DNA of 64,000 nucleotides from Hyalangium minutum (lineage in GTDB: Bacteria; Myxococcota; Myxococcia; Myxococcales; Myxococcaceae), in contig NZ_JMCB01000003.1 in NCBI RefSeq assembly GCF_000737315.1, positions 217,394 through 281,393 on the forward strand. The letters run 5' to 3'. The notes beneath the pieces are model-generated. The model was not told where the DNA came from, ran no database searches, and worked only from the letters and a program-made list of their open reading frames with translations. Position numbers and translations under genes: made by a program. Below are positions 3,001 to 46,302 of this stretch, piece by piece (within the stretch, counting starts at the first letter, position 1; every line of letters starts with the position of its first letter).

Positions 3001-6000
3001 CACCTCGGCGGTGGCCGTGCCGGGCATCGGCAGCTTCGAGGTGACGGCGACCGCGGCGCATGAGGGACTGGGCGTCCCGAGCGCCACGCTGATCCCGGGC
3101 GATGGGCCTGGCTTCTCCGTCGAGGCCCTGGAGGGGCGGCTGCTGATCTCTCCGCCAGGGGAGGGGCAGGGGACGGGCACTACCGCACCGGGCCGTCTGC
3201 GGCTGAACGTGGAGCCTTCTCCCGCGGGGCACGGTGCCTTGGCCCAGGTGCGCTTCCGCTACGTCGTGAAGCCAGGGCACGAGGGCAGCACTGCGCTCCA
3301 GTCGTTCCGCTCCGCATTCCCCGACGGCGTGGGCAGCGTCACGCTCTCCGCGCCTGCCTTCTCCGCGGATCTGTCGTTCCCCTCCCAAGACATCGAGATG
3401 GAGGAGGTGGACATCCAGTTGTCCAAGGCGTCCGCGAACGCCGAGGAACTGGCGGTGACCCGGCTGGGCCTGCGCGGGTGGGGCACGCCGCAGCTCCAGC
3501 TCCGTGCTGAGGCTGCCGGCGAGCGCGTGGCGGTGCAGCGGTGGAACACGGGGGTGGCGCCCTCCCGGCCCGGACAGGTGAAGCGGATCGACGAAGCGGT
3601 GTGGCTGCCTCGGGGGCAGGCGCCGCGGGACTCCCAGCTAACCGTGCTGGCCGAGGATGTGGCCGGGCTCGTGGGCCGCGTGGCGATCCCGATCGTCGCG
3701 CGCACGGACACGGACCCGCCCACGGCCTCCATCGTCTCCCCCGGCAACGGCGCGTCGGTGGTGGAGGACACTGTCTTCGAGGTCCAGGTGAGCGCCCAGG
3801 ACAACGCGCGTCTGGATCAGCTGGAGCTGTGGGTGGATGGGCAGTCGCGCCAGGTGATGCGCGTGGGACCCGGGCCGTCCGGATCGCCTCAGGCGCACCG
3901 GTTCTCACTCTCCCTGCCGCTGCCGGCCTCGGGGTACCCGGCCGCGCTGTCGGTGGTGGCGCGGGATGGGGCGGGCAATGCCACGGCGTCGGACACAGCC
4001 TATGTGCGTGTCATCCCCGATGTGGCGCCGTCGGTGACGTTCCAGTCGTTGACCTCCGCGGTGGAGTCGTTCACCCGCACCGAGCTGGACAGCGGCTACG
4101 TCGTGATGCTGCAGGGCGTCCCCGCCACGCTGGGGATGCTGCTGGAGGATGACGCGGGCCTGGCCTCCATGCGCGTCCAGTTCGGCGATCAAGTGGTGAA
4201 GGAGGAGTCCTTCACGGGCGCGCCGCTGACGGCCGGGCGGCAGGTGACGTTCACTCCGCCCGTGGGCCGGGACGGCGCCCCCGTGGTGCTGCTCGTGTCG
4301 CTCACGGACTCTGCGGGCCATACGCGGCAGACCCGGCTGCTCATCGAGTCCCGGAGGCCCCGGCCTCCCGCGCTGGCGCTGGCCGCGCCTACCCCTGGCG
4401 CTACCATCGCCGAGGGCAGCATTCAGCTCCTCTTCGACGCCGTGGCCGTGGACGACACCGGGGTCGACCATGTGCAGCTGTTCATCAACGGCCAGCCCGC
4501 GCTGATCCTCACCCGGGGAGAGCCCATTGCGTGGAACCTGGATCCGCAGAGCGGGGCGGTGGTCGTCGCCGATCCCGCGCTCCGGCAGGCCGTGGCCTCC
4601 CTGCCCCCCGAGGACCAGGATCTGCAGCGCCTCCGGCACTACCGGGGTCAGGTGAAGCTGCCGCCCGGGTTCGTGGCGCTGGTGCCCGGGCGCACGGACG
4701 CGGCGCTCCAACTGCGCACCATCGCCGCAGATAAGGAGGGGCACGAGACGGTGCTCGATCAGCCGCTCCGCATCGAGGCGGACGTGGCGACCCCGCTCGT
4801 GGAGGTGCTGCGGCCCGTGCTGGGGCGCAACGTGGTGGAGGGCACCTCCGTGCTCGTGGAGGTGTCCGCCCGCGACAACGTGCTGGTGGATCGGGTGGAG
4901 ATCCTCGCGGGGCCTAGCGCCTCCGAGCTGCGCGTGGTGCACACCGCAGGCGGCTTCCCGCCCACGAACGCCGTGCCGGGCTCACCCTTTGATGTGTACG
5001 CGCCCCTGGTGCAGTACGCGTTCACGGTGCCCACGCTGGCGCAGCTCGGCTCCACGGTGCCGGTGCCGTACTTCGTCGCCGCGCGCGCCCGGGACATCAG
5101 TGGCAACTGGACGGCCCCCGCCGACTTCGTCATCCAGCCCATCGAGATCATCCAGGACCAGCCGCCTGGGGTCTCCATCCTCTCGCCCGCGGATGGCACT
5201 CCGGCAGTCGCCAACAGCACGATCACCGTGTCGGTGATGGCCGAGGATGACGTGGCCGTGGGCAACGTGCGCCTGGAGGTGGATGGCACGCCGCTGCCCG
5301 TCACGCTGCACGCGCCGCCTTTCTCCTTCCATGTGCCGGTCCCGGATCGCGCGGGCGAGCTCCGGCTGCGCGCGGTGGCGGTGGACTCGGGAGGCCATCA
5401 GGTGGGCAGCCAGGTGGTGATCCTGCCGCTGCGCGACGATCTGGCGCCCACTGTCGCCGTGGCGCAGCCTCGTCCGGAGGCTCGGCTCACGGAGGGCCGG
5501 GACTTCGCGCTGGTGGTGGCGGCGCAGGACGACGTGGCCATCCGCAGCGTGGAGGTGCTGGTGGAGGGCGGGCTCGCGGGCCCACTGCGCCTGGTGGCCT
5601 CCAACCTGCCGTACTCCTTCCGCGTTCCGTTGCCTCCGGGCTCGGCGGGGAGGACGCTGCGCATCGTCGCTCGGGCCCGGGACTCGGCCGGACACGAGTC
5701 CGTGGCCCCCGAGGTGACGGCCCTGGCGGTGGCGGACACCTCGCGCCCCACGGTGGCGTGGTTGCGCCCTGCCGCGGGCTCGCAGGCCCTGGAGGGCTCG
5801 GTGGTGGAGCTGGAGGTGGACGCGCGAGACGACGTCGCCGTCAACAGCCTGGAGCTGCGCCTCAATGATCAGCCGCTGGCCATCATGCCCACGCCGCCGT
5901 TCCGGATGACGTACCACGTCCCGGCGCAGGGGGGAGGGCAGGCGCTGGTGTTCTCCGCCATCGCTCGGGATCCCTCTGGCAACCAGACCGTGGAGACGCG

Positions 6001-9000
6001 CCGCCTGGAGATCGCGGAGGACGAGCCTCCGTCCGTCTCGGTGATTGCGCCGACGCGGCTCGTGGTGGGCAACCCCGCGCTGCTGCGCGCCCAGGCCAGC
6101 GATGACGTGGCCGTCACCGAGATTGGCTTCCATGTGGGATCGGATCCGGCGGCCTTGAGCGAGGTGGCCCGGCGCTACCAGTTGCCTTACGAGTTCCGCT
6201 ACGCGGCCACCGAGGCCGATGTGGGCAAGGTGCTGACGATCCGGGGCCGAGCCATGGATCTGGCGGGCCATGAAGCGTGGTCCGTCCCCGTGCAGGCGCT
6301 GGTGGTGCCGGACACACCTCCCACCGTGGCGGTTCGGAAGCCCCTGGCGGGCGAGGCGATCTTCGAGGGCCAGCGCCTGCGTCTGGAGGTGGAGGCCACG
6401 GACGTGGAAGGCCCCATCAAGCAGGTGGCCTTCTTCGTGGACGGGCGCAAGGTGCACGTGGCCACCACGCCTGCGGGCATCCCCGGTTCGCCCAACCTCT
6501 TTGCCACGAGCTACAGCCCACCGGTGGGCAGCGGCAACCGGCTGCTGCGGATCACGGCGGTGGCGGTGGACTCGGCCAACCAGGAGACGGAGTCCGCGCC
6601 GGTCGTCGTGGGCACGGTGCGCGACACGGTGCCGCCGGAGACCCAGCTCGTCGATCCCATGGTGTGGGAGCTCGTCACCGAGGCCGAGCCTGTGGAGTGG
6701 ACGGCCGCGGCCCTGGACGAGTCCGCCGTGGTGGGGGTGCGCTTCCTGGTGGATGGGCAGCAGGTGGGGCCACCGTCGACCGTGCCGAGGCCGGGGCCCT
6801 CCAACCGGCCGCTGTATTACGGCACATGGCTGCCTCCCTCGGGTGCCGCGGGACAGACGCGCACGCTCACCGCAGAGGCCACGGATCCGTCCCAGAACGT
6901 GGGCCGTGCCGAGCCTGTCACCGTCGAGCTGGGCATGCGCCCCGAGCCCGCGGTGGAGCTGGTGGTGGAGCCCTACGCGCGGCGGCAGGCCGGGATGGCG
7001 GCGGATGGCGAGGGCCTCGTCATTCATGGGGCTCTGCTGAAGGACGTGCCCCTGCCCCCGCCCAACGACACGGTGAAGCGGGATGAGGGCCGACTGGCAC
7101 TGGCCCGGCTGGACCTGAACGGGCTGGCGCCGCTGGGGACTGTGAAGGTGACGGGCTCTCCGGTGAGCCAGACGTTGCTGGGACGGCTGGCGCTCGTGGC
7201 GATGGGCCCCGTCTTCGATCCTGTGGGCAAGAAGACGATCCCCGCGCAGCTGCAGGTGGTGGATCTGTCCAACACCGCCGTGCCCCGGCTGAGGGGAGTG
7301 GTGGATCTGCCCAGCGACGACGTGCACCAGGTGGTGGCGAGGGACCGGTTGGCCTTCGTGGCCAACGGAACTTCGGGCGTGGCGGTGCTGGAGCTGGGCA
7401 ATCCGGACGCGCCTCAGCGGGCTTTCACCCGTCCCACGGTGGGTCCGGCGCGGGGCGTGGCGGTGACGGACCAGTGGCTGTTGGTGGCCGCAGGCTCCGG
7501 AGGCCTGCGCGTGCTGGACGTGCGCGATCCGTATCTGCGCGAGCTGGGCTTCGTCGCGCTGCCCGGTGAGGCGAACCGGGTAGAAGTCGTGGGCTCGCGC
7601 GCATACGTGGGGTGCTCGAACGCCCAGGCGCCTCTGGCGGTGGTGGATCTCTCCCGTCCCGCGCAGCCCCGGCTGATGTCGCTGCTCTCGCACGCGCCGC
7701 GCCGCCCGGACCTGCTGGCCAGCGAGGTGACGGACGTCGCCGTCTCCGGAGGCGTGGCGCTGGTGACCACCGCGATCACCGATCAGGACGCGGAGCCCGT
7801 GAAGGGGATCCTCTCCGCCTCGACGGTGAAGGCGGATGGGGCCGCCTCCACTTTCGTCCGGGCGAACCTGCCGGGCGCTCGGGATGTGCTCTTCAGCCAG
7901 GGGCGGCCGGTGGCGCTGCTCGGGGACTCGGCGATGGGGGCCTTCACGCTCCCTCGGCTGGCGGTGACGGACGTGTCCCCTGTGGATGGCACGGGGCAGG
8001 TGCCTCCCACGGCTCAGGTGACGGTGACGTTCTCCCGGCTGTTGCAGGGGGCCTCGGTGACGGAGCAGACAGTGTTGCTCCGAGCCCAGGACGCCGTGCT
8101 CGGGCCGGTGGTGCCCGCCACGGTGACGGTGAATGAGACGCGCATCCTCGTGGCACCTCGGGCGCCGCTGCCCACGAACACGGAGATCTTCCTCACGGTG
8201 CTCCCCACCGTCACGGGCGAGGGCGGGGTGACGCTGGGCGAGCGCTTCGTCTCGCGCTTCCGCACGAGCCCAGTGGACGGCCTGCCTCCCCAGGTCGCGG
8301 ATGTGCAGCCGCCCGCGGGCCCAGTGGACGGCGGTACACGCGTGAGGGTGTGGGGCCTCCACTTCGCTCCTGGCGCCCGAGTGCTCTTCTCCGGCCAGGA
8401 GGCCACGCAGGTGCAGGTGGCCGCGGATGGCCGCAGCCTCGATGCCGTCACGCCTCCCAACCTGGAGGGGGCCGTCGTGGTGACGGTGGTGAACCCCAAC
8501 GGGCTGGAGGGCTCGCTGCTCGGCGGCTTCCTCTACCTCCAGATCCTCGACGTGAGCATGGTGGTGCCGGCCACCGGCAGCCTCGCGGGTGGCAATCTCG
8601 TGGAGCTGTCCGGCTCGGGCTTCCAGCGCGGCGCCACCGTGCGCTTCGACGGGGTGCCCGCCACGGACGTGCGCGTGCTCTCGCCGGGCCGCATCTCCCT
8701 GCGCACACCTCCCGGACACTTCGGCACGGTGGATGTGCGGGTGGACAACCCGGATGGCCGGTACGTGGTGAAGCCGGATGCCTTCCTCTACTCGAACCTC
8801 GTCGTCTCCCGGGTGCTGGGGCGCCACATCCCGGATCCTCAATATGACGGCCCCATCCGCCCGGCGGAGAAGCTGCCACAAGGCGTCCCGCGCGCCGTGG
8901 TGATGCAGGGCGGCCTGGCCTGGTTGCTGAGCGACGGCACGGCCGCCCTCCAAGCCCACTCCCCCGAGGAGCTGCTCCAGGACAGCATCCAGGCGGCGGT

Positions 9001-12000
9001 GACGCTGGTGGACGTGAGCGATCCGGACAACGCCGCCGTGCGGAGCGGTGTGTCCATCGCGCCGCCCTACCAGCCGCGCGCGCTCGCGGTACGGGGCACG
9101 ACGGCCTACGTCGCGGCGGATGCCGCGGAACTGCCCTACGTGGATGTGGTGGGGGAGGGTGGGCCCTCGCTGCTGGTGGTGGATGCGTCGGTGCTGCAGG
9201 CCCCGAGGATGGTGACCGCGGTGCCCTTCGAGGGGACCGCTCGCGCGGTGGCGGTGGCGGATGATCTGGCGCTGGTGGCCGCGGGCGCGGGCGGACTGGC
9301 TGTCTTCTCGGTGGCCGATCCGCTGCGGCCGGTGCTCACGGGCTCGATCCAGAGCATGCGGGTGAGGGGCGAGGTTCGCGCGGTGAACGTGGTGGACGTG
9401 GCGGCCTCGGGCCGCTACGCGCTGGTGAGGGCAGGCACGAACGCCGGCACGTTCACGCTGGTGCTGGATCTGGCCACTCCGGGGATCGAGGTGGTGGGCG
9501 AGGCGTCCGATCTCGGGCCGATGGCGCTCCAGGGCCGCCGGGGACTCACGCTCGGCAACGGGCAGATCCGGACGCTCTCGTTCTCGCCGCCCACGTGGCC
9601 TCGGAACCTCGTGGGCATGTCGTCGCTCGTGGGGGGTACTCCCGTCACCGTGGCGGTAGGCCCCCACGTGGGCGCCGCGGGGACAGAGGTGTCTCGGCCC
9701 GGGAACTCTGGCTCGGGCAAGCTGGAGGTCTCCCTGAGCGCGGACCCCTCGCGTCCGCGAGCGGTCGATGCCGTGGATCTCTACCCCGCGGCCCGCTTTG
9801 GAGGGGTCGCCGTGGAGCGGGATGTCGCGGTGATCTCCATCTCCGCCTTGCTGACCAAGAAGGGCGAGGTCGTGGCGGATCCCACGCTGGCCCTGGGCTC
9901 GGATGGTTTGGCGGTGGTGCGGATGCCCTTCCTCATGGGGATGCGCAGCCAGCCCGCGGATGGGGACACCGAGGTGCCGCCCTCCACGCCGCTGCGGCTC
10001 GAGTTCAACCGCGAGGTGGCCGGAGCCTCGCCGCAGACGGTGCGCCTCATTCGCCAGGATGGCTCGGTCAACGGCGTGGTGGAGCCCGCGGAGATCCAGA
10101 CCTTGGGGCGCACGGTGCTGCTGCTGCCCGCCCAGCCGCTCGCGCCCTCGACGACCTACCGAGTGGTGGCCGATCAGCTGACGGATGCGCTCACGCGGGC
10201 GGAGATGGCCGGGCCCTTCTACCTGGAGTTCTCCACCGCCAGCAGCAGCGCGGCCATGCCCGTGTCCATCTCAGGGCTCACGCCGCGCGAGGGCCCCGCG
10301 GCCGGGGGTACGCTGGTGACGGTGACGGGCACGGGCTTCGAGCCGGGGGCCACGGTGCGCTTCGGCGGCGTGCCGGCCACGCAGGTGACGGTGTCCGAGG
10401 ACGGGACGCAGCTCACGGCTCGCACGGCCGCCAACACCGCCGGAGCCGCGACGCTGGAGGTGACCAATCCCTCGGGCAGTGTGGCGCGGCGCCTCGGCGC
10501 CTTCCTCTTTACGCAGCCGCTGTCCGTGCTGGCGGCAGCTCCGGGGCGCGGCCCCGCCTCGGGGGGCACGCGCGTCATCTTGTCGGGCACGGGGTTCTCT
10601 TCGACGGGAACGGTCCAGGTCCGCTTCGGAGGTGTCCCGGCGCTGCGCACGCGCGTGCTCGGGCTGAACCGGCTCGAGGTGTACACGCCGCGCGGCCTGC
10701 GCGGCACGGTCGACATCCAGGTCACCAACCCGGACGGCAGTCAGGCCACGCTGGAGGACGGCTTCATCTTCGATCAGCCGGGTGGGGCCTCGGTGGCGCT
10801 GTCGGATCGGCCGGTGGATGTGGTGGTGATCGGCGACTCCGCGCTCGTGCTCCAACGCGGTGGGTTGTCGGTGGTGGATCTCTCCGGGCTGTACCTCAAG
10901 GGGCCCCTCAAGGACACGCCCATCCCTCCGGATCTGGTGGATGGTCTCGTGGACGTGGATAACGATCGCAAGGACGATCGGCTCGTCTCGTTCCTCCCGA
11001 TCCCGGATGCGCTCTCCCTGGCCTATCCGTCCACCTGGGGGCACCGCCTCTTCGTGGGAACAGGAGGCTGGGATTCCAAGCTGCAGCAGTGGACGGCGGG
11101 CGAGGTGCTCGAGGTGGCCATCGCGGATCTGGCCCACCCGGCGATCTCGGCCAGGACGGCGGCCGTGGAGGGGCCTGTCTTCGGCCTGGATGTGAAGGAC
11201 GAGCGGTTGCTGGCCGCCACGGGACAGAAGGGACTCAGCAGCTTCGATCGCTCATATGCGCCGTTCCTCGTTGGCCAGCTGCCGATGCAGGGCGCGGCCC
11301 AGTCCGTGGCGGGAAGCGCGGGCATGGCGGTGGTGGGCGTGGGGCAGCGAGACGCCACCTCCTTTGCCGTGTCGGCCGGGGCACTGCGGATCGTCTCCAC
11401 CGAGGCCTCGCCTTCGCTCCGGGGCGCGCTGCCGCTCAACATTCAGCGGGCGAGGTGGAAGGGCGACGTGGCCGTCGTGGCTGCTGGCGATGCGGGGCTC
11501 GTGCTGGTGAGCGCCGCGAATCCGGATCAGCCCCAGGTGCTGGCCTCGGTGCTGGTGGGCGGCTTCGCGTGGGATGTGCGGCTGCAGGGCAACCTGGCCT
11601 ATGTGGCGGCGGGGACGGCGGGCGTGGCGGTGGTGGATCTGACGGATCTGCTCCACCCGCGCGTGCTGTACCACGTGACGGGCGCCCGGGGCGGCACGGC
11701 GAAGCTCGTGGAGATGACCGCGGGCGGCCGCCTCGTGAGCATGAGGGATCGCGGTACCCAGGGCTGGTCCGTGGACTTCGGACGCCCCTCGGAGCTGGCG
11801 GTGGTCTCCGCGAGCGTGGCGCCGGACGAGGTGGTGCCGCTCTCGCTGCCCTCGGTGACGGTGACGCTGTCCGCGGGCCTGTTGCACACGTCGGCGCCGG
11901 AGGCCTTCTCATTCACGGCGAATGGCGCTCCGGTGCCTGGGACGCTGGAGGCTGGGACGCCGGAGCTGCCGGTGAGCACGCTGGTGTTCCGGCCTTCGGA

Positions 12001-15000
12001 GCCGCTGCCCTCGGGCGCCGAGCTGCGGCTGGCGCTGGGCACCTCGCTGCGCTCCCTGCTGGGGGATGCGCTGATAGCGCCCTTCGAGGTGCGCTTCTTC
12101 GCCGCGGGAGGCACGGGCGAGCGTCCGCAGCTCCTCCAGGTGGTGCCGCGCGTGGGGCCCTCCGAGGGAGGCACGGAGATCGAGCTGCTGGGCACGGGCT
12201 TCGTCCCAGGCACCACGGTCCGCATCGGTGCCGCGCCCGCGCTCGTGCTGTCGCTGTCCTCCACGCGGATGACGGTCCGCGTGCCTCCCGGAGAGCCTGG
12301 GCTGGCGGACGTGGTGGTGGTGCACCCCTCGGGCGTCACCGCGAGGCGCTCGGGCGGCTACTTCTATTCCGCGCCGCTGTTCGCGAGCGCGTCGATCCCG
12401 CGCTTCCTCAACCCGAAGGGCGGAAGCACCGTGCGAGTGACGGGGCGCGGCTTCCTGCCCACCTGGTCCAGCCCGTTGGGCTCCACGCGCGTGCTGATTC
12501 GCGGGCTGCCCGCGCGCAGCGTCTCCGTGGAGTCCACCACCCAGCTCGTCGCGGTGGCCGGGCCCGGCTCCTTTGGCGACGCGGACGTGGAGCTGGTGGC
12601 GGCGGACGGCCTGCAGCGCGCGAGCTCGCCCTCTCCCGTGGGGTATGGGCTCCCATTCTCGGGGAAGGTGGTGGGTGCCTCGGTGAGGCCCGTGGCGCTG
12701 GCGGGCAACCCCGCGCTGCCGCTGCTGCCGTTCGCGGCGGCGGGCGCTTCGGTGGAAGGCAACACCTTCCCTCAGCCCTATACCGGTCCCATGACGGGCG
12801 GCGGCCTGGTGCCCGAGTCCTTCCGCATGGTGGCCTATGACGTGACTCGCGTGGGCCGGCCCGAGCTGGCGGGCGCCTCGGTGGTGGATCCGCCGGATCA
12901 CGACGTGGACTACCTGATCGGCAGCCTGCCGTATCTGGCCCAGCGGGAGCTGCCCCTGCCAGAAGTGGAGCTGATGCCGGACTCCTTCGACGTGGCGCTG
13001 CGCGGCACCCAGCTCCTGGTGGCCAACGGCGCCAGCGGCCTCGCGGTGATTGACGCGTCCGGGACGACCCTGGAGCAGTGGCCGCTGCTGGGGCGCGGAG
13101 GCATTGGCAGCGTGCTCGGCCAGGAGTACGCCACGCGCCTGCTGGCGACTCCGACGGGAGCCTGGGTGTTCAGCAATCCCCTCGAGGACAACCTCCTGCC
13201 CGAGGAGATCCCCTGTAAGTCCCCCACGGACGAGCACTACCCCGCCGCGGGCAGTGGTGGCCAGCTGCAGCTCTTCGATACCCGCAGTCCGTCGGATCCG
13301 GTCCTCCTGGGGAGCATCGGCTCGGGGAGCGCGCAGGAGCCGTACGGCGCCACGGTGGCGGGAGGACGGCTGCTGGTGGCCATGGGCAACCACGCGGGCG
13401 TCATCTACTGCACCGAGACGCCGTTCCCTCCGCCGCCCTGGGCCTCGCTGACCACGGGCCGCCGCACGCGGTTCCTCGGGCTCGATCCGAGCGACGACTA
13501 CCGGTCCGAGGACGCGCCGATCATCATGATGAAGACCCCGCACGGGGCCTTGGAACTCTATGACTCGGCGGGAGTGGGCGCGCAGCGGCTCGCTCGGAGG
13601 CCGTACCCCTACAGCCTCACGGACGTGGTGGTGGTGCGGGACGTGGCCATCGCCTCGGCGGCCGAGTTCGGACTGATCTTCTTCGACGTGCGGCCGGACA
13701 ACCCGCAGGCGCCGCAGGAACTGCTGCGGCTGCCCTTCGATCAATCGCTCTCCAACACCCCCGGCCACCCCGAGCGCCTGCGGCTGATTGGGGATCTGCT
13801 CTTCGTGGCCGCCTCCTCGGGGAGCGTGTACGTGCTGGACGTGTCGGATCCGCGCCACCCGGAGTTCCTCAGCGGAGGCAACACGGAGTTCGCGTACGAC
13901 GTGCTGCCCGTGGGGGATCGGCTGATGCTGGCGAGCCGCCAGGAGCTCACCGAGCTGTCCATGCCCTTCCTCCTGCCCCTGTCGACGACGCCGGAGCGGG
14001 ATGCGCTGGTGCCGCCGTCCCTGAGCCAGCTCGAGGTCCGCTTCAACCGGCCGCTGGCGCCGGCCACCGTCAACGACATCAGCGTGCAGCTGATCGGGCC
14101 CTCGGGTCCGGTCCCGCTGGAGCTGTCCGTGGTGGCGGAGCACGCGACGCTCACCTACGCCGTGCGCGCCCAGCTCCCGGAAGAGGGGCTGGAGCCTGGC
14201 GCCACCTATGAGGTGCGGATCGCGTCCACGGTTGCGGACCAGCGGGGCGGAGGGATGATCCGGCCCTTCCGCACCGCCTTCCGCACGGGCGCCGCGGGCA
14301 GCCACGCGCCTCGGATCGATGCGGTGCAGCCCTCGGCGGTCTCCATGGCGGGAGGGCAGCAGGTGGTGATCCAGGGCTCGGGCCTGAGCGGCGTGGCGTC
14401 GGTGCGGATCGGTGGAGCCACCGCCAGCTTCACGGCAGCGGGGGATACGGAGCTGCACGTCACCGTGCCTCCGTCCACGCGCCCTGGGCCAGCGGACGTG
14501 CGTATAGAGGATGCGGGGGGCCCCTGGTCCCTGTTGCCGCACGGCGTCCTGTACCTGTCGCCGCTCGCGAGCGCTCACGCCTCGCTGGTGCCCGACCACG
14601 GGCCCGTGGAGGGCGGTACCGAGGTGAAGGTGTCGTTCAGCGGGGCCTCTCCGGTGGCTCCGGGCACTCGCGTCTTCATTGGAGATCGCGAGGGCGTGAA
14701 CGTGGACGTGGTGAGCCTGTCCACCCTGCGCTTCACCACGCCGCGTCCAGATGGGCCCGGCCTGGTGCCCGTGAAGCTGGAGCGTCCGGGCGAGGTGTCG
14801 GAGACGGTGGGGTACTTCTCCTATGATCTGCCCACGGGCACCACGGTGGATCTGCCCGGCTTCCCGCCGCGCGAGACGTCCGAGGTGGTGCTCTCGGGGG
14901 ATCTGCTGTTCGCGGGAGTGCCCACCGCCGGGTACGAGGGGCTCGAGCTCTTCAACATCCGCGTGCCCGAGCACCCGGTCCGTCTGGGAGGCCTGCGCAC

Positions 15001-18000
15001 GGAGGGCGCGGTGCGAGGCCTGGACGCGCGAGGAGCGCTGGCCCTGCTGGCCACGGATGCGTTCGGCCTGGTGGCGGTGGATGTGCAGGATACCGCCCGG
15101 CCCTTCACCGTCGGCCGGGGCGCCACTGCGGGGCTCGCCACGGGGATCCGGCTGGAGGGCAACGTGGCCCACGTCTCGGTGACCCAGATGGATGGGGGCG
15201 CCGGGTATGTGCAGACGTTCGATGTCTCGCAGCCCTCGCTGCCGCTGCTGAGCACCACTCCGCTCACGGAAGATGCGCTGGCGCTGGATCACGCTCCGGG
15301 GCGCTTCTACGCGCTGACCTCCAATGTGCGCACCGGGCAGCCGGATGGGCTGCGCCTCACGGTCTACACCCGCCAGGGCCAGCGCCTGGGCGGCGTGGTG
15401 GTGGATGCCACGCCGCGCTCCTACGCGGAGCTGGTGCGCAGCCGGCTCACTGTGCGCGGAGGCCGGGCCTACGTCACCCTGGGCTCTCGGCTTTACGTCT
15501 TCGACATGAGCGACGAGACCGCGCCGCAGGTGCTCCAGTCCACGGAACTGGGCGCTCCGGCGCGCGGGCTCACCTGGGCGGGCGGCTCGCTGCTGGTCTC
15601 CACCACGGGGAGCTCCACGCTGGTGACGGTGCCACCGACGGATCTGCTGGTCGTGGGCACCTCGCCCGTGAATGGCGCGCTGGCTTCTCCGCTCACCTCC
15701 ATCCGCGTGGACATGAGCCTGCCCGTGCGCGAGGACACGGTGACGGCGGGGACCTTCGAGGTGGTGCAGGTGGGCTCGGCAGGCCCCGTGCCCGTGCCCG
15801 GCCATCGGGAAGTGGTGTTCGCCACGCGGGGCTCCTCGCTCGTCTTCACGCCGGAGGACCCGCTCGAGCCCGGCGCTCAGATTGAGGTGAAGGTGGAGGG
15901 GGTGCTGGGCTTTGACACCCGGCCGCTGGCGCACCCTGCGTCCTTCGCTTTCACGGTGGCGGGGGAAGATGCGCTGCAGCCCTGGGTGGAGCGGCTCGAA
16001 CCCGCCTCGGGGCTCTTCACGGACTTCACCGCCACCACGGTGCGGGGCGCGGGCTTCCGCCAGGGCGTCACCGTGCGGATCGCCGGGCAGAACGCCACGG
16101 TGGTCTCCGTGCAGGAGGATCAGCTGGGGATCGTCGTCCCGCCGTCGCTCACGTCGGCAGGGCCGGCCTCGGTGGAGGTCATCGATCCGAGCGGCCTGTC
16201 CGCGGTGCGCCTGGGCGGCTTCCTCTACCGCGAGCCGCTGCGGCTGGCGCTGCTCTCGCCGGATCGCGCGCCGCAGCAGGGCGGAGTGGCCGTGGAGCTG
16301 CGAGGCACGGGCTTCATGCCCGGCCTGGTGGTGCGCTTTGGTGGCACCGGCTCCTTCCAGGTGGACGTGCCGTCCATGGAGCGGGCGGTGGCCGTGGCGC
16401 CTCCGCACGCGCAGGGGTTGGTGGATGTGGAGGCGGTGCTGGGCAGCCAGAGCGCCGTCAAGGCGCGCTCCTTTCTCTATGGCACGGGCGCGGTGTCTCG
16501 CCTGCCCACGCCCCCGGTGCGGGACGTGCGGGTGGAGGGCACGGTGGCCTATGTGGCGCTGGGCGGCGAGACGGAGATCGTCGGGCTCGACGCCGAGGGC
16601 CACCTCATCACCCTCGAGCAGCGGCGGAAGACGGACTCCGGTGGGCTCATGGTGGCCGATCTCAGCGAGCCCACGGTGGCGCGCGAGATCCGGCGAGTGA
16701 ACGTGTCCGCGCAGGGGGGCGTGCGCCGCATGGCCAGGGCGGGCAACACCCTGTACCTGGCGGCGGGCTCCGCGGGGGTGGTGGCCGTGGACGTGAGCCA
16801 GCCCGCCAACGCGTCGGAGACCCTGAGGCTGTCCGTCCAGGGCGAGGCCGTGGACGTGGTGACGGCCGGCAGCCTGATCTTCGTGGCGGATGGGAGCGGC
16901 GTGCGGGTGTTCCGCACGGGTGAGACGGAGCAGCCCATGCTGGTGGCCCAGCGAGCGCTGCCGGGGGGCGCGAGCGCGCTGGCGTTGTATGGCGGGCTGT
17001 TGCTGGTCTCGAACGCGAGCGCAACGGACGCACGGCTCTATGTGCTGGACGCGCGGCGCGGGGATCTGGCTCCGCTGGCCCAGGAGGCGCATCTGCCGCT
17101 GTCGGCTCCGGCGCGGCACATCGCGGTCGAGGGCACGCGGGCCTTTGTCTCGCTGGGGCGCGCGGGGCAGGTGGCCATCGTCGAGCTGGCCGATCCCACG
17201 GCGCCCGCTCCCGCGGGCACGCTGGTGCTGAAGGACGAGCTGCACCAGGGGTGGACCTCCGCCGAGCAGACGCTGGTGGCCGGAGACGTGGTCTGGGTGG
17301 CGGGCGGAGGCGGCAAGGTGCAGCGCTTCGCGGCGCTGGTGGGGCAGCAGCCCCAGTGGCTGGAGACGGCTTCCGTGCTCGGAGACGCGAAGGCGCTGGC
17401 GCGCTCGGGCCGCTACCTCATGGCGGGCACGCTGCTGCTGGACGTGAACGGACGCCCGGTGGAGATGCCGCTGGCGGACACCCGGGATGCGGCGGGGACC
17501 CTGACGGGCGGGCTCGTCTCTGTGGCGCTGGATCACCTGGAGCTGAGGGGGACGGTGCCGGTGGCGGGCGCGGTGGTGCAGGTGGGCGTGGTGCCCGAGG
17601 TTCTGCTCTCCGCGCTGCCGGACATGGCCACGGCGGGGGCAGTGCGGCTGGAGGGCACGGATGGCGTCGAGGTGCGCGTGGCGCGCCAGGGCCGGGCGGA
17701 CACGGAGGGAGGGCGGCTCGCGCTGATCCCGCAGTCGCCGCTGGCGGTGGGGACGGACTACGTGCTGCGCGTGGGCGGCACACTGGCGGATCTCGCGGGC
17801 CGGCCGCTCGGAACGGACGTGGGCGTGCGCTTCCGCACCGGCCCGATCGCATCTCCCGAGCAGCCGGTGATCACGGCGATGTCGCCTGTCACGGGCCTGG
17901 AGGCGGGCGGGGACACGGCCGTCCTCACGGGAGAGGGCTTCATGCCCGGCTGCCAGGTGTGGGTGGGGGACACGCTGGCCTCGGGGGTGACGGTGTCCTC

Positions 18001-21000
18001 GGATGGGGGCCGGATCACGCTCATCGTCCCGCCGGGGCCTGCGGGCGCGGCGGCGGTGCGGGTGCGCAACCCCAATGGACTCGAGGCGCTGCAGCTGGGG
18101 CTGTACCGCTACCTCGTGGCCCCCGAGCTGACGCAGGTGTCGCCGGCCCAGGCGCCCTTCAACAGCCGGCAGCGGGTGGTGCTGACGGGCAAGGGCTTCG
18201 CGGCGACCACGCAGGTGACGTTCGGCGGCAGGCCAGCGCTGCACCCGGTGATGGACTCGCAGGGCCGGATCTCGGTGGAGGTGCCGGACGATGTGACGGG
18301 CGTGGTGGAGGTGGCGGTGGCCACGCCGATGCCGGGAGGGGCGCTGGTCGCCCGGAGGCCGGACGGCTTCACCTATACGCTCAAGCCGCTGGGGGGCGTG
18401 GGCGGCAACACGGAGGCCCTGGCGGTGGCGGGGCGGGTGCTGCTGGCCGCGCGGGCGGGACGGCTCGTGGCGTTCGATCTCACGCGCCCCGGCGATCTGC
18501 CGGAGGTAGCCAATGTCCCCGGTGTGACGAGTGCGGGGGGCCTGGTGGTCTCGGGTGACGAAGCTTGGCTCGCGGGCCAGGGCGAGGTCGTGCGGTATGC
18601 CCTGGAGGGCTGCGGCGCGGGCCTCCCGGTGAGCTGCCCGCTCCAGGTGGTGGAGCGCATTCCGCTGGTGGCCTCGGGCGTGGCCAGCGTGGCGGCGGGG
18701 CAGGGGAGTGCATACGTGACGGTGGCGGGCGGCAGCGACGTGGTGCTGCTGGGCCGGGTGGACGGGGCCACGCGCGTGGTGGCCCAGGTGAACGTGGGGC
18801 CGGGCGTGGTGCGAGGCGTGGCCATGGCAGGCCCGGTGCTCGCGGTGCTGGTGCAGGGCTCGCAGTCGAGCCGGCTGGAGCTGCGCGACGTGGCGGATGG
18901 GTCGCTCACGCTGGTGGGTGAGGTGCCCGGGTTGTACTGGACCGTGAACCGGCTGGCCGCGGAGGGCACGCGCGTGGCGGTGGCCTCTGGAGCGGGCGTG
19001 CGCCTCTATGAGACGGCCGAGCCGGCCGTGCCCGTCGAGCTGGGCCGGTTTGAAGGCCAGGGCAGCGCGTACACCGTGGCGCTGTCGGGCCCGTGGGCGC
19101 TGGCCTCGGGAGACTTCGGGCTGGCGTGGCTGGACACGACGCAGGGGCTGAAGCGGCGCACCTCGGGCTCGACATATGGGTGGGCCGGGAACGTGGCCGT
19201 GGGGGCAGGGGTGGCGGTGGCGGCCTCGGCCTATGAGCTGAGAGCCTTCGAGCTGCCGTACCCCACGGTCACCGGCCAGGAGCCTTCGCCGGGAGGCGCA
19301 CTGCCCAGGGAAGCGGCCGTGTCGGTGACGCTGGCGGATCGTCTGCCGCCCTCGGTGGTGCAGGGCACTGCGATGGAGCTGGTGGGCCCCGCGGGAGCCA
19401 TCTCCGGCACGCGCACGGTGCAGGGCTCGGCGGTGCTGTTCCGGCCCTCGGCGGTGCTCACTCCCGGGGAGCGGGTGCAGGCGCGCGTCACGCTGGGCGC
19501 CACGCCCTATGTGGGCGGCACGGTCCTCGGGCCGTGGACGTGGTCCATCCTCCCGAGCGCGGAGGCTCCCTCCCTTCGAGTGGATGCGCTGGTGCCGGAC
19601 CATGGAGACGTGTCGGGTGGCTACCCGGTGGTGCTGGCGGGCGCGGGCTTCGACGCGCAGACGCAGGTGTGGTTCGGCACGCGTGCGGCCACGGTGGTGC
19701 CGCCGGTGTCCACGGACGCGATCCATGTGCTGGCGCCGGCCTCTCCGGTGCCGGGCCCGGTCCGCGTCCGCGTGAGCCCGGGGGTGGCGGGGACGCCGGT
19801 GGATGTGCCCGGAGGCTTCGTCTACCTGGCGCCGCTGGCGATCTCGCGGGTGACACCTCCCCGGGTGGACCTGGGCGGAGGCGCGGTGACAGTGGAGGGC
19901 ACGGGCTTCAACCGGAGCCTCACCGCGCGGCTGGGCGGGCTCGTGGCGCCGGTGAGTGACTTCACGCCCACGAGCTTCAAGCTGAGCGTTCCGGCCGGTC
20001 CTTCCGGGTGGCTCGCGCTCGAGGTGGCGCAGGCGGGCACGCCTCCGGTGACGCTGGCTCAGGCCGTGCTGCGCGCCGACGGCGTCGCGCCCACCGTCAC
20101 CGCGTGGGAGCCGCTGGACACGGTGGGCACTGGGCAGGTGCCGCTCAACTCCATCTTCACGGTGCGCTTCAACGAGCCCATTGATCCCGCCACAGCCACC
20201 CACGTGCGGCTCGTGCGCCAGGGCGGCACGGTGCCAGAGTCCGGGACCCACACCGTCGCGCCGGATGGGCTGAGCGTTACGTTCACACCGGCGGCGGCGC
20301 TGCCCTCCACCACGGCGTTCACGCTCTCGGCGGCGGGGGTGGCGGATCTGTTCGGCAACGCGATCGCGAACACTGCCGCGGCCCGGAAGGACTTCCGCTC
20401 TCGCGACGTGGTTCCGCCCAACGTATACGTGCGGTTGGAGAGCAGCACCGAGCCCCTCGCGCCAGGGACTCTGCTCGCGGCGGAGGTGTCCTGGAGCTTC
20501 CGGGTGGTGGCCTCGGATGACAGCGGCCAGGTGAGCCTCCGCCAGCTCTGGGTGGACGGAGCGGCCGTGAGCGTGGATTGGGACGGGAAGGCCACCTACC
20601 GCTGGCCCGCGATCATGAGCTCGAGGCCCTCGACGCTGAAGGTGCGCGCCGAGGACAGCGCGGGAAACGGTACCGAGTCCGAGGTGACGGTGCAGGTGGT
20701 GGAGGACATGCCGCCCACGGTGGCGATCACCCAGCCCTCCACGCCAGTGGTGCAGGTGGAGCAGGGCGTGTCGCTCACCGTGGCGCTGGCCGCGAGCGAC
20801 AACCATGGTGTCTCGGCGGTGGAGCTGCGGCTGGACGGGGTGCCGATCAAGCGCGCGAGCAGCCTGACGGGCACGAACGCCACGCTCTCCCATGTGCTGT
20901 ACCTGCCCACGCAGGGCACCTACCAGCTCACGGCGCTCGCGATGGATGATCGGGGCCAGCTCACCAGCTCCGAGAGCGTGAGCGTGCAGGTGCTCCCGGA

Positions 21001-24000
21001 CACGACGCCGCCGCAGTTGGCGTGGGTGTTGCCCATGGCAGGGACCAAGCTCATCGGCGGCGGGCGCTACCCGTTGCAGGTGTCCGCCACGGACCTGAAC
21101 GGAGTGGCCGAGGTGTCGTTCCGCATCGATGGCCAGCTCGTGGCGACGCGGACGGCCCCGCCCTGGTCGATGGACTGGGACGCGCCAGCGGTGACGTCCG
21201 CGGGGACCCGCCTGCTCGAGGCTCGCGCGCGAGATGCGCAGGGCAACGAGGCCGGAGCCAGCCAGACGGTGACGGTGGCGCCGCCCTCGACTTCACGGCC
21301 CACGATCGTGCTCGATGGGTTTTCTACTTCTTACGGCTACCCCGAAGGGACGGCGGTCACGGTCCGAGCGCGTGTGACGTCGGAGATCCCGCTCCAGAGC
21401 GTGCGCCTGTCGCTGGGAGCGGAGACGGTGACGCTCACCCAACCGCCCTGGCAGCTCACGTTCGTGGCACCGCGAGTTCCGCCGCCCTCGCAACTGGTGA
21501 GGCTCCGCGGCACCGCGGTGGATCTCCTGGGGCGCGAGAGCTTCCCTGTGGAGTACGACGTCACCGTCCAGGACGACGGGCGGCAGCCCGTGCTCGCGCT
21601 GGACATGAACCCGCAGGGCCCTTCGCTGCTGGGCGGTTCCACGCTCCAGGTGGGGGGCCTGGATGGCGGCGTCCTGACAGGCACGGTGGTCCGCGTGAGC
21701 GAGGTGCTCCAGCCCGCCGAGACGGACGGGGGCTACACCCTGCCCTTCGAGCCAGAGGCGGCGCCTGTGCGCGTGTCCGCGCGAATGGATGCGTGGGACG
21801 GCGGCATGGTGACGCTGGAGCGGCAGGGCACGCTGACGGCCTTTGCCAACGGTGCCACGGTCTCGGTCGCGGCCGCGGACGAGCCCGTGCTGGATCTGGC
21901 CACCTCCGGGCCATGGGAGTGGGTGGCCCGCGATCAGAGCGGTGGGCACACGCGCCTCGAGCTCCGGGATGCGGCCACTCAGGCCCTCACGGCCGAGCGC
22001 TCGCTGGACGGGACCGCGGTGGCCGTGGCCTTTGAGCGGGGCCGGGCCGTGGTGGCGCTGCGCACCGGAGGGCGCGGCCGGGTCGACATGATGTCCGTGC
22101 CTGCCCTGGAGACGGTCGGCTCGTTCTCCGTGCGCAGAATCCCCCGCGCACTGGAGACCACTTCCTTCGGTCTGGCGATCGGGACGGACGAGGGCCTCGA
22201 GCTGTGGAGCAGCGGGGGCATGCTCGCCTCGCGACTGCCCCTCGGGGACGTGCTCGGGGTGTCCGCCGAGGGTGATCGCCTCGCGGTGCTGACGAACAGC
22301 ACCTTGTATGAAGTGGATGCGAGCGTGCCGCATGCTCCGGCGCTCGTGGCCTCCGTGCCTGTGGCAGGAGCCACAGGGGTGGTGGCGCTCGCGGATGCCC
22401 GCAGGTGCGTGGTGGGAGCCACGGCGCGGTGCTTCCGCGTGGAGGGAACCGCCTTGACGCTCCAGGGTGAAGCGCGGCTGCCGGACACGGCGATCGCCGC
22501 CGACGGTCCGGGGCCGTGGCTCCTGGCGGGCACGGCCAGCGGTCTGTCCGTGGTGGATGCGCGGGGAGCTCCCTCGATGGCGGGGTACTACCCGGCACTG
22601 GCGGGGCGGGTGGCTGCAGGGGACGGCCGCATCGTCGCGGCGGCGCCGGGCCGCAGCTCCCTCCTGAAGCTGCGGCGGAGCGTGGGAGCGCCCACGGTTC
22701 ACCTGGAGCTTCCTCCCTCGGCGGCTCCTGGCGCGCGGGTGCCCGTGGTGGCCAGCGTGGAGGGGCTCTCGGACCCTCGGGATGGCTACACGGCGGAGCT
22801 GCGTGTGCGCGGCACGGCTGTCCAGGTGCTCAAGGGGCGGCTGCCGCAGTCCGTGGATCTGCCGCGTGACGGCACGGCGGCGCAGGTGGCCCTGCGGGTG
22901 GTGGATCTCGCGGGCCATGAGGCGCTCGCGCAAGGAACCGTGGCGCTCGTGGATGATGGGGCGGGCCCGGCGCTGGCGGCGCTGCAGGCGCGGGCGGAGG
23001 TGCCCTCGGGCGCCTTCTTCTCGCTGGCGGCGGTCCCGGCGGATCCCGCGCGGGTGGCCTCTGTCGAGTACTCCGTGGACAGCACGGTGCTGGGACGCGC
23101 GGATGCTCCGGCGCTGGCTTGGCGGCTGCGGGCTCCCACGGTGTCCACGGACACGGCCTTCACGGTGAGCGCGGTGGCATTGGACGCGCAGGGCCGCCGG
23201 GGCGCGCCGGTGCAGGCCTCGGTCTGGGTGCGGGCAGGAACGGGGGCGGCACTGCCCACGGTGTCCCTGGCGCGCGTGGGCACCGGGTCGATCCAGGAAG
23301 GCACGGAGGTGAGGGTCCGGGCCACGCTCACGCCGTCGGTCCCCGTGGCCGAGGTGCGCTTCAAGATGGACGGAGAGGAGCAGCAACGCCTGATGCTTCC
23401 CCCGTATGAGGCGGTGCTGCGGATGCCGGTGGGAACGGGCTCGCGCGGCGTCACAGTGGAGGCGGTGGCGGTGGATGACCAGGGCCGCGAGTCGGCCGCC
23501 GCGCTCCTACCGCTCACGGTGGTGGATGACCTGACGCCTCCGGTGGTGGCCCTCGAGGTGGATCCCTCGGGAGAGGTGCTGACAGCTGGGAGCCGTGTGC
23601 GAGCCACCGCGATCGCGTCCGATGGAGGAGCGCTCGAGTCCTGGTCCGTCCGGGCGCTGTTGGCGAACGTGGAACTGGCCAGCGGAGGTGGCCGGCTGGA
23701 CTTCACCGTGCCCGCGAGCACTCCGGCCGGGACCTTGGTGGAGATCGTCGCCACGGCGCGGGATGTGGCGGGCAACGTGGCGACGAGCCGGGTGACGAAG
23801 ACGGTGCTGGCCCCCGTCCTGCCCGACGGCGGCGTCGTGGTTGCCGGGGACTTCGTGGGAGCGGACCGCCTGACCCTGCGCGGGGACTTCGTCTATGCGA
23901 CGACCCCGAGAGGACTGGCCGTGGGGCGGGTGCGGTGGGGAGAGACGCCCACGATCGAGCCGGTGAGCTTCCTCGCCACGGACGTCGCGCCTTCCTCGTT

Positions 24001-29857: not shown

Positions 29858-30723
29858 GGCCCTCAAGCGGAATAGGCAGCTGGCTCGTGTTGGCCCTCGC
29901 GGTGCTGTCCGGGTGCGATGACTCGCGAACGGTGGCGAAGGTGGGGCGCACGGGCCTGACGGTGGAGGACGTGACGCAGCTGCGCGCCGCGCAGAGCCCG
30001 AGCGTCCGCGCCGCGCCGGAGCAGACGCTGGAGGTGCTGGTGGATCGCGCCCTGCTGGCCGAGGAGGCCCGGCGCCAGAAACTGCACGAGCAGCCCACGG
30101 TGAAGGCCCAGCTCGCGGCCGCCGAGCGGGAGCTCCTGGCGCATGCGGTGCTGGAGCGGGCGGTGGCTCCCAGCGTGACGGACGAGGCGCTGCGCGCGCG
30201 CTACGAGGCCGCGCGCTCCCGGCTGGAGCGCCGCGAGGTGCACGTGGCCCAGATCTTCGCGCGGATGCCCGAGGGCTCTGATGAGAAGACTCGGCGCCAG
30301 GCGCAGGTGCGCATCAACCAAGCCTATGCCCGGCTCGCGGGCGGAGAGCCTTTCGAGACCGTGGCGCGCGAGCTGTCCGAGGACTTGGTGAGCGCGCCCC
30401 AAGGAGGAGAGCTCGGCGTGGTTCGGGAGGGAGGAGTGGATCCAGCGTTCTTCGCCCAGGCCGTGGCGCTGGCCGCAGGCGCTTGGTCCAAGCCGTTCAT
30501 CACGCCCTTCGGCTGGCACGTGGTGAAGGCGCTTGAGGCGTCGAAGACGGTGGTGCCCTCCTTTGATGAGGCGAGAGGTGTGCTGGAGTCCGAGGCGCGC
30601 CAGGAGGCCCAGGCGAAGCTGATGGAGCGGCTGCGTCAGGAGATCTCGGTCCGTCGCTACCCGGAGCGGCTCAAGCTGGCAGAGGAGAAGAGCAAGCCCC
30701 AGGGCGAGGGGGAGGCGAGATGA
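29854..30723 (+). CDS. Peptidyl-prolyl cis-trans isomerase, parvulin (PpiC) type. It is a PrsA/SurA-like foldase lipoprotein.
   Basis: The ATG at 29854 overlaps the TGA of the giant gene (ATGA). The N-terminus MRPSSGIGSWLVLALAVLSGCDD is a signal peptide with an LSGC lipobox. The C-terminal parvulin signature is PFITPFGWHVVKALE. A SurA-like N-terminal chaperone region rich in A/E/R helices is present. Confidence 0.85.
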   Translation: MRPSSGIGSWLVLALAVLSGCDDSRTVAKVGRTGLTVEDVTQLRAAQSPSVRAAPEQTLEVLVDRALLAEEARRQKLHEQPTVKAQLAAAERELLAHAVLERAVAPSVTDEALRARYEAARSRLERREVHVAQIFARMPEGSDEKTRRQAQVRINQAYARLAGGEPFETVARELSEDLVSAPQGGELGVVREGGVDPAFFAQAVALAAGAWSKPFITPFGWHVVKALEASKTVVPSFDEARGVLESEARQEAQAKLMERLRQEISVRRYPERLKLAEEKSKPQGEGEAR

Positions 30724-46247: not shown

Positions 46248-46302
46248 GGCACCGGAGACTACCCAAGGGGTCGCTCGCCGTCATGCCGCTCTTTCAGGTA
46301 GG

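Follow-up and report, generated by a model that had tools for sequence, protein, structure and literature searches.

The LVIVD repeats initially reported came from proteins of the cell surface in Methanosarcina and some bacteria (PMC2447325). Here, we describe a giant gene of the myxobacterium Hyalangium minutum, a predator living in soil, in which repeats of this type are part of a larger array. The gene lies in a stretch of 64,000 nucleotides (nt) of contig NZ_JMCB01000003.1 (positions 217,394 to 281,393 of the forward strand; hereafter the window). The central 4,400 residues of its product, encoded at 6872-20041 of the window, form seven tandem supermodules, each made of an LVIVD-type beta-propeller, one Big_5 (SbsA-type) immunoglobulin (Ig)-like domain and two IPT/TIG domains. 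All of these domain types are known. What distinguishes the giant is a higher-order repeat whose units are fixed in number and in identity, together with a conserved three-gene context.

Proteins of the LVIVD and Beta_propel families (PF08309 and PF09826) are built from the same blade motif of about 42 amino acids (aa) as the giant protein (…AYVA.g..GL.V.DVSDP..P..vg…). The typical LVIVD relatives that we retrieved have 500-1,100 aa and carry at least a dozen clean blades without interruption, whereas the giant has seven separate and much more degenerate propellers, with two to five recognisable blades each, every one followed by a Big_5-TIG-TIG block, in a chain of 10,000 aa. When whole modules are compared by structure, the best matches of both predicted models described below are the ectodomains of plexins, MET and semaphorins (among them 6gcu, 2uzy, 7mo7, 6vxk and 5l56; E-values of 1e-13 to 1e-9). 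Plexins and MET share with the giant a seven-bladed propeller directly before IPT/TIG domains of the same Pfam family, but the template modelling (TM) scores are low, at 0.15-0.34: the domain order is common and the geometry is not. Moreover, the giant has Big_5 in place of PSI, repeats the unit seven times, and would be a bacterial secreted protein rather than a transmembrane receptor. Pfam scans of the giant and of the seven propeller intervals gave no match to Sema (PF01403) or PSI (PF01437), and membership of the Sema-PSI-IPT receptor family was rejected on this ground. The resemblance is architectural and probably convergent. The integrin alpha chain, with its FG-GAP propeller and Ig-like thigh and calf, also places a seven-bladed head on an Ig-like stalk, and the alpha-V chain is among the Foldseek matches (8xen). 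The giant has no detected FG-GAP repeats and is neither heterodimeric nor membrane-anchored, and the analogy is architectural only.

Long bacterial fibres provide another comparison. RTX adhesins such as LapA, SiiE and MpIBP repeat a single Ig-like unit over a long stretch and have their binding modules at one end. The same layout is found in GhpA, a protein of 5,898 aa and 52 Ig-like repeats that catches prey for a predatory bacterium, and in SprB (bioRxiv 10.1101/2024.01.29.577165). Like the GhpA grappling hooks, SprB of Bacteroidota and the RTX adhesins, the giant is a largely Ig-like protein of several thousand residues; Sec export, reported for this group, is predicted for it as well. Fragments of GhpA are weak structural matches to the module model (9flw and 9flp). 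The giant differs from these fibres in having unique binding-type propellers at regular intervals and repeats without similarity at the DNA level. No RTX or type 9 secretion sorting domain was seen in it, scans of its C-terminal part gave no RTX/HemolysinCabind match, and its relatives have N-terminal Sec signal peptides; an RTX or type 1-secreted adhesin was rejected as a candidate because of the missing RTX match and these signal peptides. Finally, propellers are associated with giant Rhs/YD shells in teneurins and in Tc toxins, where the TcB propeller goes with an Rhs cocoon. In the H. minutum locus one polypeptide carries the propellers and another the YD shell, and there are seven or more propellers instead of one. 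No likeness to TcA or to the NHL propeller of teneurins was seen in the giant, although no search aimed at them was made.

In public databases, members of the giant family are present only as "hypothetical," "IPT/TIG domain-containing" or "Ig-like domain-containing" proteins. Our literature searches found no study specific to the family, which is unnamed. A survey of giant genes reported an abundance of very large genes in Myxococcota and does not treat this propeller family.

Seven supermodules in one giant protein

The domain map was built with local hidden Markov models (HMMs) seeded from the best Pfam stretches and iterated over the giant protein. The open reading frame (ORF) and its supermodules are as follows.

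2-29857, plus strand: giant ORF (41-29857 in the ORF list; in frame without a stop back to base 2)
6872-8758, plus strand: supermodule 1, with propeller 6872-7993, Big_5 7994-8215, TIG-A 8303-8503 and TIG-B 8561-8758 (LVIVD 41.3 bits; four consecutive blades)
8759-10738, plus strand: supermodule 2, with propeller 8759-9967, Big_5 9968-10183, TIG-A 10277-10477 and TIG-B 10535-10738 (LVIVD 19.5 bits, just under the cut-off)
10739-12610, plus strand: supermodule 3, with propeller 10739-11827, Big_5 11828-12046, TIG-A 12140-12334 and TIG-B 12395-12610 (LVIVD 28.3 bits)
12611-14794, plus strand: supermodule 4, the largest, with propeller 12611-14002 (464 aa), Big_5 14003-14236, TIG-A 14324-14521 and TIG-B 14585-14794 (LVIVD 22.0 bits)
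14795-16450, plus strand: supermodule 5, the smallest, with propeller 14795-15682 (296 aa), Big_5 15683-15907, TIG-A 15995-16195 and TIG-B 16253-16450 (LVIVD 17.8 bits)
16451-18331, plus strand: supermodule 6, with propeller 16451-17584, Big_5 17585-17788, TIG-A 17879-18079 and TIG-B 18137-18331 (LVIVD 31.5 bits)
18332-20041, plus strand: supermodule 7, with propeller 18332-19294, Big_5 19295-19495, TIG-A 19589-19783 and TIG-B 19850-20041 (AlphaFold2 model; no Pfam LVIVD match)

From the first to the last, the supermodules measure 623, 660, 624, 728, 552, 627 and 570 aa. Their fourteen TIG domains form seven pairs, beginning at aa 2755/2841, 3413/3499, 4034/4119, 4762/4849, 5319/5405, 5947/6033 and 6517/6604, with a TIG-to-TIG period of 557-728 aa (mean about 627). 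The TIG-B domain of supermodule 3 holds an insertion that is conserved in orthologues. Pfam places TIG (PF01833; 219.9 and 138 bits, 13 stretches) and Big_5 (PF13205; 108 and 103 bits) above their gathering scores, and the local HMMs find one Big_5 ahead of each TIG pair.

The original prediction, made by reading the sequence alone, had proposed fourteen TIG motifs in seven evenly spaced pairs, each preceded by about 300 aa of LVIVD-like repeats and an SbsA-like Ig domain. The seven pairs were borne out, at positions within about 50 nt of the HMM starts, and domain HMMs recovered TIG, Big_5 and LVIVD alike. The expected periodicity of roughly 600 aa is visible as a ladder of diagonals over aa 2700-6650 in a chunked self-BLAST dot-plot; unchunked self-BLAST of the whole giant gave the identity match alone. 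The spacing is roughly regular and not strictly even. A Big_5 domain does precede each pair, while the propeller intervals span 296-464 aa. After module 7 comes an eighth Big_5, and two weaker propeller-like regions are present past the range proposed for the array.

The propellers

Pfam LVIVD (PF08309) was above its gathering score of 20.2 bits in four of the seven propeller intervals and just below it in two; the remaining interval had no match. By these scores the seven-interval block as a whole can be assigned to LVIVD, which does not hold for each module by Pfam alone. Pfam LVIVD matches are by themselves thin evidence, and we therefore tested the propeller claim by profile search, blade HMM and structure prediction. 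A MAFFT alignment of the seven intervals was poor, with three invariant columns, and served as a profile and not for residue-level claims. Searched against 5.8 billion proteins, this profile returned 47 matches with E-values down to 1e-71, all but two of which carry PF08309. We also used 412 blades of these homologues to train a blade HMM, which matched almost only within the seven intervals, with two to five blades in each, and at two places downstream; the blade consensus carries a conserved D-x-x-x-P-x-x-P turn.

The AlphaFold2 model of module 5 has a predicted local distance difference test (pLDDT) score of 81.9 and shows 24 strands followed by three beta-sandwiches. In the model of module 7 (pLDDT 87.5, predicted TM score 0.81), 28 propeller strands and closing strands precede three sandwiches, and the model superimposes on RACK1 and G-beta with TM-scores of 0.67-0.76. 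From these models, the LVIVD-type repeats of the giant are predicted to fold into beta-propellers. Because of their 24 and 28 strands, we count six blades in module 5, provisionally, and seven in module 7, where the model suggests a seven-bladed propeller. The predicted TM score of 0.81, from one module, suggests a defined arrangement within the module; the periodic rod of the original prediction is a possible geometry for the array. Since the lengths of the propeller intervals differ as widely as given above, blade number or insertions would vary along the chain, and the largest module probably has more blades or insertions.

Ancient duplication and module-by-module conservation

The modules share 20-32% identity in protein and about 45% in DNA, the latter near background at this GC content. 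Only three DNA matches between modules were found, none above 131 nt, and the two longest are at the starts of first TIG domains. Because of this background-level identity and of the small number of short matches, a recent duplication or an assembly artefact is ruled out. This agrees with the earlier argument, drawn from the divergence of the modules, against recent duplication or assembly collapse, as do the single ORFs of 9,679-10,033 aa in relatives.

DNA of Myxococcaceae metagenome-assembled genomes (L002 and L003) is colinear with the giant gene at 82-85% identity and has intact frames. The dN/dS ratios are 0.26 and 0.29 over 1,785 and 2,931 orthologous codons, again with frames intact. 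The giant gene is under purifying selection, weaker than is usual for housekeeping genes, and in this respect the gene is selectively maintained, as had been proposed.

We searched 1.84 billion representative proteins exhaustively with an HMM profile of the seven modules and considered the top 150 matches. Most matches were plain TIG arrays; 17 of these 150 match the whole module profile in several stretches. Members of the family occur in Myxococcus, Corallococcus, Stigmatella, Melittangium and Hyalangium and in metagenomes. The relatives share a plan: a Big_7 array, seven propeller-Big_5-TIG-TIG units, Big_5-Big_7 x4 and more propeller. In all relatives that cover the block from end to end, the number of TIG pairs is exactly seven. 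In module-by-module BLAST, each module best matches the module of the same rank in P0056, P0062, P0063, P0061, P0088, P0096 and P0127, with 92-557 bits against 20-135 bits off the diagonal. Diagonal scores are 3-10 times the off-diagonal ones, and the pattern is kept down to 28-40% identity. In P0131 the diagonal covers modules 2-6 only (150-201 bits, 25-34% identity). This protein of 3,550 aa, whose start is overlapped by a gene call of 1,663 aa, is encoded on contig L012 (JGI 3300043541, 15.7 kb, 41% GC). Hence, the family is not limited to high-GC genomes.

Compared by plain identity within the giant, first and second TIG domains do not differ (35/30/33%, permutation p = 0.45). In a leave-one-module-out profile test that included orthologues, TIG-A and TIG-B were told apart correctly at 13 of 14 positions (p about 0.0009). 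By this profile comparison, the first and second TIG domains are separable subtypes across modules. The one-to-one orthology and the two TIG subtypes argue that the unit was duplicated whole and that the seven-fold array was finished before the family diverged. Likewise, since each module has a same-order one-to-one orthologue and dN/dS is low, the duplications are ancient, as the original prediction had it, and the modules are not interchangeable. At the level of these comparisons, the analysis shows that the seven-fold duplication of the whole unit predates the divergence of the family and that, from then on, purifying selection has preserved every copy as an orthologous unit in its own right.

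We also observed an orthologous gene on contig L001 (ENA ERZ25039597 contig_3132, 656 kb) with 85% DNA identity over 21.7 kb. The gene is called there as about 19 short fragments and each frame has 81-93 stops, which reflects either assembly indel errors or a decayed pseudogene.

The remainder of the giant protein

The part of the giant protein inside the window has at least 9,938 aa, and its N-terminus is cut off by the 5' edge of the window. In alignments, its first residue corresponds to residue ~547-561 of full-length relatives, which places about 550 N-terminal residues upstream of the window. The full-length relatives begin with Sec-type signal peptides. From these signal peptides and the alignment, the complete protein would have about 10,500 aa and be exported. 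The conserved core of the family runs from the signal peptide through a Big_7 Ig array to the seven supermodules, and the C-terminal end differs by lineage. Proline makes up 8% of the protein. The segments outside the supermodules are these.

674-6769, plus strand: N-terminal array of 17 Big_7 Ig domains, before the supermodules (Pfam Big_7 338 bits; local HMM map)
20132-23389, plus strand: post-module block, with the eighth Big_5 at 20132-20344 (aa 6698) and Big_7 at 20456-21436 and 23255-23389 (local HMM)
about 21680-22828, plus strand: weak propeller-like region (blade HMM; propeller profile)
24326-25756, plus strand: further propeller-like region containing LVIVD blades, aa about 8096-8572 (propeller profile; dot-plot similarity to the module propellers)
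27293-29854, plus strand: lineage-specific C-terminal end, aa 9085-9938, with Cys-rich acidic double-disulfide repeats and a terminal ~200 aa (NCBIfam NF033662)

The post-module block has the same order in P0056, P0061 and P0063. The two weaker propeller-like regions past module 7, the second with blade HMM matches at aa 8001-8473, have no Big_5-TIG-TIG block, so the propeller series goes on in a different format.

The C-terminal end gives an NF033662 score of 104 bits over 5 stretches and has 4.7% Cys, against 0.14% in the modules. Its double-disulfide repeats follow the motif CxxGxDDDGDGxxD, and internal copies at aa about 9500 and 9700 share at least 70% identity in the dot-plot. The terminal ~200 aa have no family match, and the protein ends in ...WQWTGVIP. 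Similarity to P0063 (Myxococcus virescens), P0056 and the Stigmatella and Melittangium orthologues stops at aa about 9070-9085; for the Corallococcus sp. M34 orthologue it stops at ~8800, and for the most distant relatives directly after module 7. The GC fraction drops to 0.66-0.67 over 26001-30000, from ~0.72 upstream, which hints that the C-terminal end could be a swapped-in cassette.

The GC content is 66-75% along the window and ~72% across the giant gene. Two antisense ORFs overlap the gene, at 11909-20893 (minus strand, 2,994 aa) and 4982-9667 (minus strand, 1,561 aa). In the Pfam scan, TIG (13 stretches), Big_5, Big_7 and LVIVD matched in the plus-strand giant frame only, and no domain matched in antisense or alternative-frame ORFs over the region, which were rejected as genes for this reason. 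Antisense ORFs of this sort are usual in GC-rich coding DNA as shadow ORFs, and gene callers could be misled by them.

A conserved operon with a probable foldase and an Rhs toxin

Two genes follow the giant gene on the same strand.

29854-30723, plus strand: lipoprotein parvulin-type peptidyl-prolyl isomerase (PPIase; PrsA/SurA-like), 289 aa (Pfam Rotamase 68 bits; lipobox LSGC in …LALAVLSGC…)
30720-44768, plus strand: Rhs/YD-repeat polymorphic toxin, 4,682 aa, with an N-terminal Ig-like array (Pfam)

Successive genes overlap by 4 nt: the TGA stop of the giant gene overlaps the ATG of the PPIase gene (ATGA), and the PPIase stop overlaps the ATG of the Rhs gene in the same way (ATGA). The PPIase is 100% identical to the H. 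minutum PPIase P0212; the ORF list begins it 24 nt too early, at a TTG. The Rhs protein has a signal-like N-terminus and a long Ig-like extension. Its Pfam matches are seven Glucodextran_B, Big_13, Big_5, DUF6531, RHS_repeat (157 bits) and PT-HINT at aa 4394-4525; the Pfam scan gave no PAAR/VgrG-type domain, and Rhs orthologues have weak TEN_YD-shell matches. The toxin tip of roughly 150 aa has a MafB19-like deaminase match below threshold (22.1 bits against a cut-off of 27), and we do not claim this activity. No same-strand candidate for an immunity gene follows the Rhs gene, the next gene being a convergent Ser/Thr kinase at 44781-46247. The giant was itself considered as an Rhs/YD-repeat polymorphic toxin and rejected, since RHS/YD repeats, PT-HINT and a variable toxin tip are all absent from it and present in its 4,682-aa neighbour.

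The order giant-PPIase-Rhs recurs in Stigmatella sp. ncwal1, Melittangium boletus and Corallococcus sp. M34. In these complete or near-complete genomes, the giants are single ORFs of the lengths given above, orthologous to ours, and the Rhs proteins have 4,100-4,500 aa. Gene order and orthology show a conserved Myxococcaceae operon in four genera, including that of the window. The distant relative P0127 has PPIase genes on both sides and a different downstream gene set. Shortly downstream of the operon in the window are genes for a YhgA-like (PF04754) putative transposase (46186-47517, plus strand) and an RtcA RNA 3'-phosphate cyclase (48839-49915, plus strand).

Possible functions of the giant protein

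We consider it fairly probable that the giant is an extracellular segmented fibre with seven different binding propellers and a dedicated foldase, acting together with the Rhs toxin. The chain would be exported by Sec and its folding then helped by the PrsA-like lipoprotein PPIase, a role that would fit the proline content and the conserved turn of the blades. The product would be a long fibre outside the cell, with the three-Ig blocks as spacers and the seven propellers as seven different putative ligand-binding platforms. By a crude estimate, a chain of about 44 Ig-like domains and at least seven propellers would, if extended, be a few hundred nanometres long. The logic would be that of the propeller-plus-IPT-stalk receptors, plexins and MET, repeated seven times on one chain. 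Because each propeller has kept its own identity for very long, the partners or surface structures recognised probably differ from one propeller to the next. Such a fibre could contact target cells, either prey or competitors, in cooperation with the co-encoded Rhs toxin; the conserved linkage to this toxin makes target-cell contact the most likely role. A direct part of the giant in Rhs delivery is much less certain.

Several points weigh against a fibre of this kind. The role is deduced from sequences and predicted models. A dN/dS of about 0.27 indicates constraint and says nothing on function. The signal peptide of the H. minutum giant is taken from relatives, its own N-terminus being outside the window. 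For a C-terminal sorting tag such as MYXO-CTERM, Pfam and NCBIfam gave no sorting-domain family in the last 854 aa, where no dedicated tag predictor was used, nor was an anchoring signal seen in the window. Finally, Myxococcus sp. CA051A (L009; JABUMS010000005.1) has PPIase and Rhs genes without a giant gene within 10 kb: two tandem parvulin PPIase genes are directly upstream of a 5,124-aa Rhs-type gene, and a third is ~3 kb further up on the opposite strand. Hence, the PPIase might serve the Rhs protein instead, and its linkage to Rhs may be older or tighter than its linkage to the giant.

The giant could also be a structural component of the envelope or the matrix, such as an S-layer-like protein or a matrix fibril, with propellers used only for self-assembly or polysaccharide binding and a functionally unrelated Rhs gene. 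It is in surface-layer and cell-surface proteins that Ig-like, TIG and LVIVD domains typically occur (PMC2447325). Pfam scans detected no toxin, enzyme or receptor-binding domain in the giant itself, and the Myxococcus sp. CA051A pair lacking an adjacent giant gene points in the same direction. However, the three-gene order with its 4-nt overlaps is kept in four genera, seven individually conserved propellers and a lineage-variable C-terminal tip fit specific recognition better, and a protein of ~10,500 aa is a costly building block; we regard a structural role as unlikely. One could alternatively propose a scaffold for delivery of the Rhs toxin, in which the giant docks the Rhs shell by one or more propellers and carries or translocates it to the target, much as TcA does for TcB-TcC cocoons. 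In Tc toxins and teneurins, YD shells have propellers as partners, the translationally coupled operon is conserved across genera, and the Rhs protein has its own signal-like N-terminus and long Ig-like extension and lacks a PAAR/VgrG-type domain in Pfam. Still, nothing similar to TcA-type channels was seen in sequence or fold, one Myxococcus genome has the Rhs-PPIase pair with no giant gene within 10 kb, and the distant giant P0127 has other downstream genes. This makes a role as scaffold decidedly improbable in our eyes.

Catalytic propellers, of a lactonase- or lyase-like kind for example, would make the giant a multi-enzyme surface array and not an adhesin; we hold this to be very unlikely. 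The chance is negligible that the array is an artefact, whether a spurious ORF in GC-rich DNA, a repeat collapsed or expanded in assembly, or a recent amplification. Such an error could be suspected from the 72% GC, from the long ORFs in several frames, including that of 2,994 aa on the minus strand, and from the many frameshifts that break the related contig L001. It is refuted by domain matches confined to the plus frame, by dN/dS ratios of 0.26-0.29 in that frame, by intact genes of 9,679-10,033 aa in three other genera and by the essential absence of a DNA repeat signal between modules. Returning to the extracellular fibre, a more ambitious version, which we hold to be improbable, would make the giant, the PPIase and the Rhs protein an unrecognised, Sec-dependent contact-killing apparatus of myxobacteria, independent of the type VI secretion system. 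In this joint proposal the fibre would read target surfaces with its seven propellers and present or dock the Rhs cocoon, and the variable C-terminal tip would set the target range.

Nothing in the giant family overturns expectations; it is large, conserved and unstudied. Myxobacteria kill prey on contact, and little is settled about the surface molecules with which they recognise and hold it. In a 2025 review of contact-dependent predation, adhesins are listed for Bdellovibrio and for Aureispira; for Myxococcus there is none, and no myxobacterial adhesin similar to the giant is named (PMC12428579). The occurrence of a conserved family of ~10,000-aa proteins in cultivable genera makes it accessible to experiments and yields testable hypotheses. 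The family also offers a natural system for the extracytoplasmic folding of very long multi-domain proteins and for the fixation of the number and identity of supermodules.

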